Shown: piece after piece, positions 61,010-61,294 of the stretch
Position numbering within the stretch: the first letter of the stretch is position 1
Layout of the letters: each line of letters opens with the position of its first letter
From: Escherichia coli
GTDB taxonomy: Bacteria > Pseudomonadota > Gammaproteobacteria > Enterobacterales > Enterobacteriaceae
Direction: 5' to 3' (one strand)
Length of the DNA: 64,000 nt
Assembly: GCF_048403405.1 (NCBI RefSeq)
Contig: NZ_CP183129.1
The notes under the pieces: model-generated
Database searches by the model: none
What the model was told of the DNA's origin: nothing
The model's input: the letters and a program-made list of their open reading frames with translations, nothing else
Program-made: the position numbers and the translations under genes

Positions 61010-61294
61010 GCCAGAAGAGGCGCGTTGCCCAAGTAACGGTGTTGGAGGAGCCAGTCCTGTGATAACACCTGAGGGGGTGCATCGCCGAGGTGATTGAACG
61101 GCTGGCCACGTTCATCATCGGCTACAGGGGCTGAATCCCCTGGGTTGTCACCAGAAGCGTTCGCAGTCGGGCGTTTCGCAAGTGGTGGAGCACTTCTGGG
61201 TGAAAATAGTAGCGAAGTATCGCTCTGCGCCCACCCGTCTTCCGCTCTTCCCTTGTGCCAAGGCTGAAAATGGATCCCCTGACACGAGGTAGTT
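61010..61294 (+). promoter_or_regulatory. lysine riboswitch (L-box) in the lysC 5' leader
   Basis: Leader contains L-box-like elements AGAGGCGC, GGAGGAGCC and GGTGCATCGCCGAGGTGATTGAACGG. Confidence 0.7.

Follow-up and report, generated by a model that had tools for sequence, protein, structure and literature searches.

Background

The lysC leader of Escherichia coli K-12 carries a lysine riboswitch whose mode of action is described in work on MG1655 DNA by Ghosh et al. (RNA 2024; PMC10946432), which also summarises the study of Caron et al. (2012, PNAS). According to that summary, in the absence of lysine an antisequestering (anti-P1) stem permits translation and hides the RNase E sites, and in its presence P1 forms, the Shine-Dalgarno (SD) sequence is sequestered and RNase E cuts the exposed expression platform. 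RNase E Site1, a UCUU motif, is placed at +250-253 of the transcript and a rut site at about +240, and Rho, together with NusG, terminates at G309 with 56% efficiency with lysine compared to 31%. Further Rho action inside the open reading frame is described there as a consequence of translational repression. Lysine-dependent effects are reported for this sequence both in vitro and in vivo, and regulation of lysC at the promoter level is reported as well (PMC10946432). In a transcriptome-wide DMS study of living E. coli, the lysC riboswitch served as a control known to adopt several conformations, and multiple conformations of it were detected (PMC13271884).

The element considered here lies in a stretch of 64,000 nucleotides of E. 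coli DNA, hereafter the window, in which a preliminary description made from the letters alone had placed a lysine riboswitch in the leader of lysC. The riboswitch is already annotated and experimentally characterised and is, as such, an ordinary element; nothing within the window is new. The locus serves as a positive control, being a textbook riboswitch which was found and interpreted by a reader from sequence alone, and the only item of some fresh value comes from related genera, in which the aptamer is missing and a hairpin of the platform is kept.

Identity and genomic context of the element

The element at 61010-61294 is, with near certainty, the E. coli lysC lysine riboswitch, contained in an mRNA leader of 306 nt. 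It precedes the following gene:

61295-62644, plus strand: lysC, the regulated gene, encoding the 449-aa lysine-sensitive aspartokinase III (ORF list, RefSeq and names of homologues)

According to the ORF list and RefSeq, the gene order is yjbE and pgi on the minus strand, lysC and yjbD on the plus strand and rluF on the minus strand, with the aptamer directly 5' of lysC, in the leader of a gene for lysine biosynthesis. Every base of the leader between 60950 and 61320 is the same as in K-12 MG1655, and between the pgi start and 61392 the two sequences do not differ. Relative to MG1655, 25 substitutions are found in the lysC coding sequence, the first of which falls at 61393, and the strain of the window is therefore not K-12. 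By this comparison with MG1655, conservation is higher in the regulatory region than in the lysC gene itself. Seen over 60771-62644, the stretch free of MG1655 differences runs through the pgi-lysC intergenic region and 98 nt into lysC. On a wider scale, bases 60900-61400 were matched in 5425 of 5426 complete E. coli genomes, 5420 of these matches having at least 99% identity, and the RefSeq annotation under the match reads 'riboswitch' followed by 'lysC: lysine-sensitive aspartokinase 3'.

An Rfam scan of the whole 64 kb on both strands, at gathering thresholds, returned three matches in total. RF00168, the lysine riboswitch family, was the one cis-regulatory family to exceed its threshold anywhere in the window, and the remaining two matches are small RNA genes, which agrees with the earlier statement that this is the only clear cis-regulatory RNA present. 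One of the two is sraL (RF01408), of an Hfq-binding family, with a full-length match at 18559-18699 on the plus strand (153 bits). The other belongs to the enterobacterial sRNA family STnc430 (RF02053) and was matched at 58963-59112 on the plus strand with 77.7 bits against a threshold of 47; it occupies the gap that separates yjbE from the pgi 3' end, and both of these genes are on the other strand.

The preliminary description rested on three L-box-like strings, all of which were quoted exactly and occur once each in the leader (AGAGGCGC at 61016, GGAGGAGCC at 61044 and GGTGCATCGCCGAGGTGATTGAACGG at 61076). Its interval ends at the last base of the leader and starts 3 nt after the first base of the Rfam match (61007); it spans the aptamer minus these 3 nt, plus the entire expression platform. 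As an account of the leader's extent this holds for the aptamer and the platform, and it stops just short of a conserved 5' stem-loop at 60995-61010. The leader length of roughly 300 nt which it gave is close to the 306-nt 5' UTR obtained from the numbering of PMC10946432.

Promoter and 5' end of the leader

In the published numbering, G309 is the G of the AUG (PMC10946432) and corresponds to position 61297 of the window, which places +1 at 60989 and makes the 5' UTR 306 nt long. The features around the 5' end are as follows:

60954-60983, plus strand: putative lysC promoter, TTGACA at 60954-60959, a spacer of 18 nt and TATTTA at 60978-60983 (read from the sequence)
60989, plus strand: inferred transcription start, +1 G, corresponding to NC_000913.3 position 4233539 on the minus strand (literature numbering)
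60995-61010, plus strand: 5' stem-loop CCUGCG-CUAG-CGCAGG, directly upstream of P1 (predicted in every fold)

The putative promoter is correctly placed relative to the start site inferred from PMC10946432, and the block TTGACA...TTTATTTATAAAT is conserved in relatives; a strict consensus promoter scan did not call the lysC promoter. A hairpin is kept at the site of the 5' stem-loop in Kluyvera, Scandinavium, jgiP0047 and Acerihabitans, with altered letters in both loop and stem. In Cronobacter (locus L127, about 820-895), the 5' stem-loop and promoter block of E. coli are replaced by a repeat, ...CCCCAGGAGCATACAAAGGTATGTGACTGGGGTGAGCGAGGAAAGCCAACGCAGCGGCAGG..., just 5' of the aptamer, which we take to resemble the enterobacterial ERIC element.

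The inferred start of the transcript, GUACUACCU (60989-60997), is complementary to the spacer between the SD and the AUG, AGGUAGU (61287-61293), and ViennaRNA paired the two in both the ON and the OFF models. Leader alignments showed no conservation of this complementarity in Kluyvera or the other relatives, and for this reason it was treated as probably due to chance.

The aptamer and its five-way junction

RF00168 was matched with 99.5 bits, its gathering threshold being 30 (E = 3.1e-25 for the 64-kb window, both strands), and the match covers model positions 1-182 of 182, with no truncation. The Rfam scan and the structure prediction of the five-helix junction proposed in the preliminary description both bore out the lysine riboswitch that it named, the first through this full-length match to the Lysine family and the second through the comparative folding reported below. 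The Rfam consensus structure, mapped on the sequence, gives canonical pairs in E. coli for 47 of the 51 consensus pairs, arranged as follows:

61007-61203, plus strand: lysine riboswitch aptamer (RF00168; the RefSeq riboswitch is at the same place)
61012-61017 with 61193-61198, plus strand: helix P1
61022-61044 with 61063-61085, plus strand: helix P2
61089-61100 with 61109-61119, plus strand: helix P3
61120-61130 with 61137-61146, plus strand: helix P4
61148-61153 with 61183-61188, plus strand: helix P5, with an extra hairpin at about 61155-61180
61049-61106, plus strand: candidate loop-loop contact between loop L2 (GCCAG, 61049-61053) and loop L3 (CUGGC, 61102-61106)

For the comparative analysis, lysC loci of relatives were collected via LysC homologues (12 contig look-ups), and one Acerihabitans locus was added through a DNA pattern scan. 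That scan, with the contig pattern GAGGCGC..CGCCGARG..TGTCAC, was too loose and returned at least 120 loci; by organism name, the matches listed were mostly from distant taxa, with many high-G+C genera and Clostridia, and a single locus (L048) among them was from Enterobacterales. A first joint alignment of 14 leaders was scrambled because half of them have no aptamer, and the leaders were split into two groups. Seven of the fetched loci from relatives have an RF00168 match (83-102 bits), giving eight aptamers for comparison when E. coli is included.

RNAalifold, run on the eight aptamers with no input from Rfam, recovered helices P1 to P5 de novo, with a P2 in three parts and an extended P5, around one junction; 64 pairs were predicted, 19 of them with compensatory changes. 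The Rfam-derived structure was then counted on an independent full-leader alignment of the eight leaders (A3), in which 89.8% of cells are paired, compared to about 40-45% when the partners are slid. Compensatory pairs in A3 number 19 against 8.2 +/- 1.9 in shuffles, none of 500 of which reached the observed value, and against 3-7 with slid partners. The compensatory changes are confined to P2, P3 and P4; P1 and P5 are invariant in the set of eight and thus uninformative for covariation.

The core motifs AGAGGNGC, CGCCGA, UGUCA and GGAGNNCU all align to the RF00168 consensus and are conserved in the eight enterobacterial leaders, except at internal variable positions (GAGGCGC/GAGGAGC and CGCCGAG/UGCCGAG). 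The extra hairpin of P5 (61155-61180) extends about 18 nt beyond the Rfam consensus; it is conserved and covarying among the enterobacterial leaders, with, for example, four compensatory changes at one pair.

According to the crystal-structure literature, a tertiary contact between loops L2 and L3 is a defining feature of lysine riboswitches. Each of the eight leaders has complementary L2 and L3 loops, and three different sequence pairs occur, of which E. coli has GCCAG/CUGGC, Acerihabitans CCGUUU/AAACGG and Kluyvera the third; each is statistically weak alone, since 3-43% of single-sequence loop shuffles are equally complementary. The predicted complementarity is compatible with the loop-loop contact of the family.

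Two further lines were pursued and set aside. Thermodynamic folding of the isolated E. coli aptamer as a single sequence did not recover the junction, its minimum free energy (MFE) structure being a different fold (z = -1.68); this was regarded as a limit of the method and not as evidence against the fold, and the covariance model and comparative folding were used in its place. Transfer of the aptamer from a Kluyvera-like donor was considered on account of its 90% identity, compared to 78% for the lysC coding sequence, and was rejected, the difference being that between a constrained RNA and decay at synonymous sites.

The expression platform and its alternative pairings

The expression platform occupies 61204-61297, downstream of the aptamer, and contains the following features:

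61207-61227, plus strand: linker hairpin with an AGCGA-AGUA-UCGCU core, capping the ON-state helix (ViennaRNA folds)
61229-61258, plus strand: C-rich, G-poor segment, with a C content of 50% and a G content of 17% in the windows that begin at +231 and +241
61179-61255, plus strand: ON-state anti-P1 (anti-sequestering) helix, in which the 3' strands of P5 and P1 (61179-61202) pair with 61232-61255 (unconstrained MFE)
61251-61289, plus strand: OFF-state SD-sequestering hairpin, 61251-61263 with 61277-61289, loop 61264-61276
61286-61297, plus strand: Shine-Dalgarno sequence GAGG at 61286-61289 and lysC AUG at 61295-61297 (sequence)

No other part of the leader is as rich in C and as poor in G as the 3' strand of the anti-P1 helix, which lies in the stretch from +231 to +270. 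The C-rich segment contains the published rut region (about +240, corresponding to 61228), the UCUU of Site1 at 61238-61241 and a second UCUU at 61246-61249, the positions of Site1 and rut having been taken from PMC10946432 and mapped through the inferred start site. The published positions coincide, in this way, with the C-rich 3' strand of a helix which was found independently of them. In the ON-state model Site1 lies in an internal loop and is not base-paired, whereas PMC10946432 draws it as sequestered.

The anti-P1 helix has 94.4% of its cells paired in the eight leaders, compared to 41-73% when the partner is slid, and shows one compensatory change, from A-U to G-C, in Acerihabitans. The SD-sequestering helix, with 13 positions and two mismatches, buries GAGG, in line with the earlier claim that the platform overlaps the ribosome binding site of lysC. 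Its arms hardly vary among the eight leaders, in which 81.7% of cells are paired; a single change, from U-G to C-G, was seen, and there were no compensatory ones. Length variation among the relatives falls only in the loop of the sequester hairpin, where insertions of about 17 nt (Cronobacter and Acerihabitans), 24 nt (Kluyvera) and 140 nt (Scandinavium) were found. For the predicted sequester helix the support is one of conservation and indel pattern, without covariation. As the anti-P1 helix takes up the 3' strands of P1 and P5 on one side and reaches into the 5' arm of the sequester hairpin on the other, the two pairings of the platform share a strand and are mutually exclusive; covariation of the two taken together is minimal, amounting to one compensatory pair.

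The insert in Scandinavium (L125, 1043-1182) has terminal inverted repeats, CCTGGCTCCTTAAGAC...GTCTTAAGAAGCCAGG, lies exactly in the loop of the sequester hairpin and, judged by these repeats, looks like a miniature mobile element. The 24-nt insert of Kluyvera is a hairpin at the same spot.

Constrained ON and OFF ensembles did not cleanly separate the accessibility of the SD, which pairs with the 5' end or with the coding sequence in both; such ensembles were discarded as a test of the SD switch, being uninformative when the SD is paired elsewhere in silico in both states. A leader peptide was also rejected, as the candidate (a TTG-initiated ORF at 61094-61267, 57 aa) is interrupted in relatives by indels of 1 and 2 nt.

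Proposed lysine response and alternative explanations

Family membership, the fold, the two alternative pairings with their conservation and the identity to the tested strain were computed here, and lysine dependence, RNase E cleavage and Rho termination are taken from the literature on the identical sequence (PMC10946432). Put together, they outline a switch in which, as long as lysine is absent, 61179-61202 (the 3' strands of P5 and P1) would pair with the C-rich 61232-61255. The resulting anti-P1 helix would hide the entry region of Rho and RNase E and would occupy 61251-61255, part of the arm which otherwise pairs with the SD, so that lysC would be translated. When lysine is bound, P1 and P5 would be locked and the C-rich segment left single-stranded, 61251-61263 would pair with 61277-61289, and with the SD covered in this manner translation initiation would fall. 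RNase E would then cut the exposed UCUU sites, and Rho would load at about +240 and terminate at the start codon, the G of which, at 61297, is G309, published as a site of both pausing and Rho termination (PMC10946432). The lysine response sets lysC expression through translation, through RNase E decay and through Rho termination, three levels which are all published for the identical sequence. The combination of translational control and RNase E exposure given in the preliminary description is published for this very sequence (PMC10946432) and stands; the layer of Rho-dependent termination was omitted from it.

How much weight this omitted layer deserves is the matter of the strongest competing account, which retains the lysine riboswitch and makes Rho-dependent termination, and not RNase E cleavage, the main control at the mRNA level, so that 'translation plus RNase E' would be incomplete in its emphasis. 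This is nearly an even call, leaning slightly against. It draws on the lysine-enhanced termination by Rho and NusG at G309, 56% against 31% (PMC10946432), and on the composition of the C-rich, G-poor stretch (50% C, 17% G), which is paired only in the ON state; however, the endogenous lysC mRNA level was not raised in a rho mutant, and bicyclomycin gave no relief of repression (PMC10946432). The lack of an mRNA rise in the mutant, together with the lack of relief by bicyclomycin, implies redundancy with RNase E.

An L-box of the Bacillus subtilis lysC kind, which attenuates transcription through an intrinsic terminator, is effectively refuted. The aptamer class is the same (RF00168) and in Firmicutes it usually controls an intrinsic terminator (PMC10946432), but the terminator scan of 61000-61300 found no stem-loop followed by a U tract on the plus strand. 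The sole hairpin with a T-run is the linker hairpin, flagged as a terminator-like site which reads on the minus strand (61224-61211) and has no U tract on the plus strand, and the platform pairs with the SD instead.

The view that the motifs resemble a riboswitch by chance or are the decayed remains of one, with lysC under promoter control only, could appeal to the absence of the aptamer from six of 12 related Enterobacteriaceae lysC leaders, by which lysC can do without it, and to the promoter-level regulation reported in PMC10946432, but it is refuted by the published lysine-dependent regulation through the identical sequence (PMC10946432), besides running against E = 3e-25 over the full model, compensatory changes in the helices and a sequence invariant across more than 5400 E. 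coli genomes.

Absence of the aptamer in related Enterobacteriaceae

The aptamer-bearing state of the E. coli lysine riboswitch is not shared by all of its relatives. The Rfam scan found no RF00168 match at six of the 12 Enterobacteriaceae lysC loci, namely those of Salmonella (L122), Citrobacter (L123), [Enterobacter] lignolyticus (L126), Enterobacter (L128), Trabulsiella (L129) and a metagenomic genome (L133). Their leaders are about 82-89 nt long (about 1110-1200 in each locus) and consist of the promoter block TTGACA...TTTATTTAT[A/G]AAT, followed almost directly by TTGCGCCTGCACC...CCCTTGTGCCATGG...CCTGACACGAGGT...ATG, which amounts to the E. coli leader minus about 229 nt. In E. coli the block of about 229 nt is flanked by a direct repeat, CTGCGC, at 60995-61000 and 61224-61229. 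The six leaders share derived characters, for example GGTCGC compared to GGCTGA in the aptamer-bearing group, which suggests that the aptamer was lost through a single deletion allele.

All six retain the promoter as well as the SD-sequestering hairpin, which is the MFE hairpin in four of them. A possible, if rather doubtful, reading is that the 3' half of the platform, comprising the C/U-rich segment and the SD-sequestering hairpin, would be a self-standing module, the sensor of which was lost, apparently by a single deletion allele, and the output of which was kept under some other control. The aptamer-less leaders bear on how riboswitches are lost and on the role of a platform which remains without its sensor. 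In a survey published in 2017, the supplementary list gives E. coli, Klebsiella, Cronobacter, Dickeya and Erwinia among the carriers of a lysC riboswitch and has no such entry for Salmonella or Citrobacter, and yet its text calls the system 'well conserved within Enterobacteriales'.

Comparison with known systems

The E. coli K-12 lysC riboswitch (RF00168) shares everything with the element described here, from the gene and the aptamer to the platform combining anti-P1 pairing with SD sequestration, the UCUU of Site1 and the rut region; the leaders do not differ, and the strain of the window departs from K-12 in the lysC coding sequence, with its 25 substitutions. The L-box of Bacillus subtilis lysC has the same aptamer family, five-way junction and regulated enzyme (aspartokinase), but its platform is a terminator/antiterminator, whereas the E. 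coli platform has no intrinsic terminator and works through SD sequestration and exposure of the entry sites for RNase E and Rho. The E. coli thiC and ribB riboswitches, in turn, share with lysC a C-rich platform segment which is exposed only in the ligand-bound state, with Rho terminating near the start codon (PMC10946432). They differ in their aptamers and ligands (TPP and FMN), and it is for lysC that the overlap of RNase E sites with the rut site is described.
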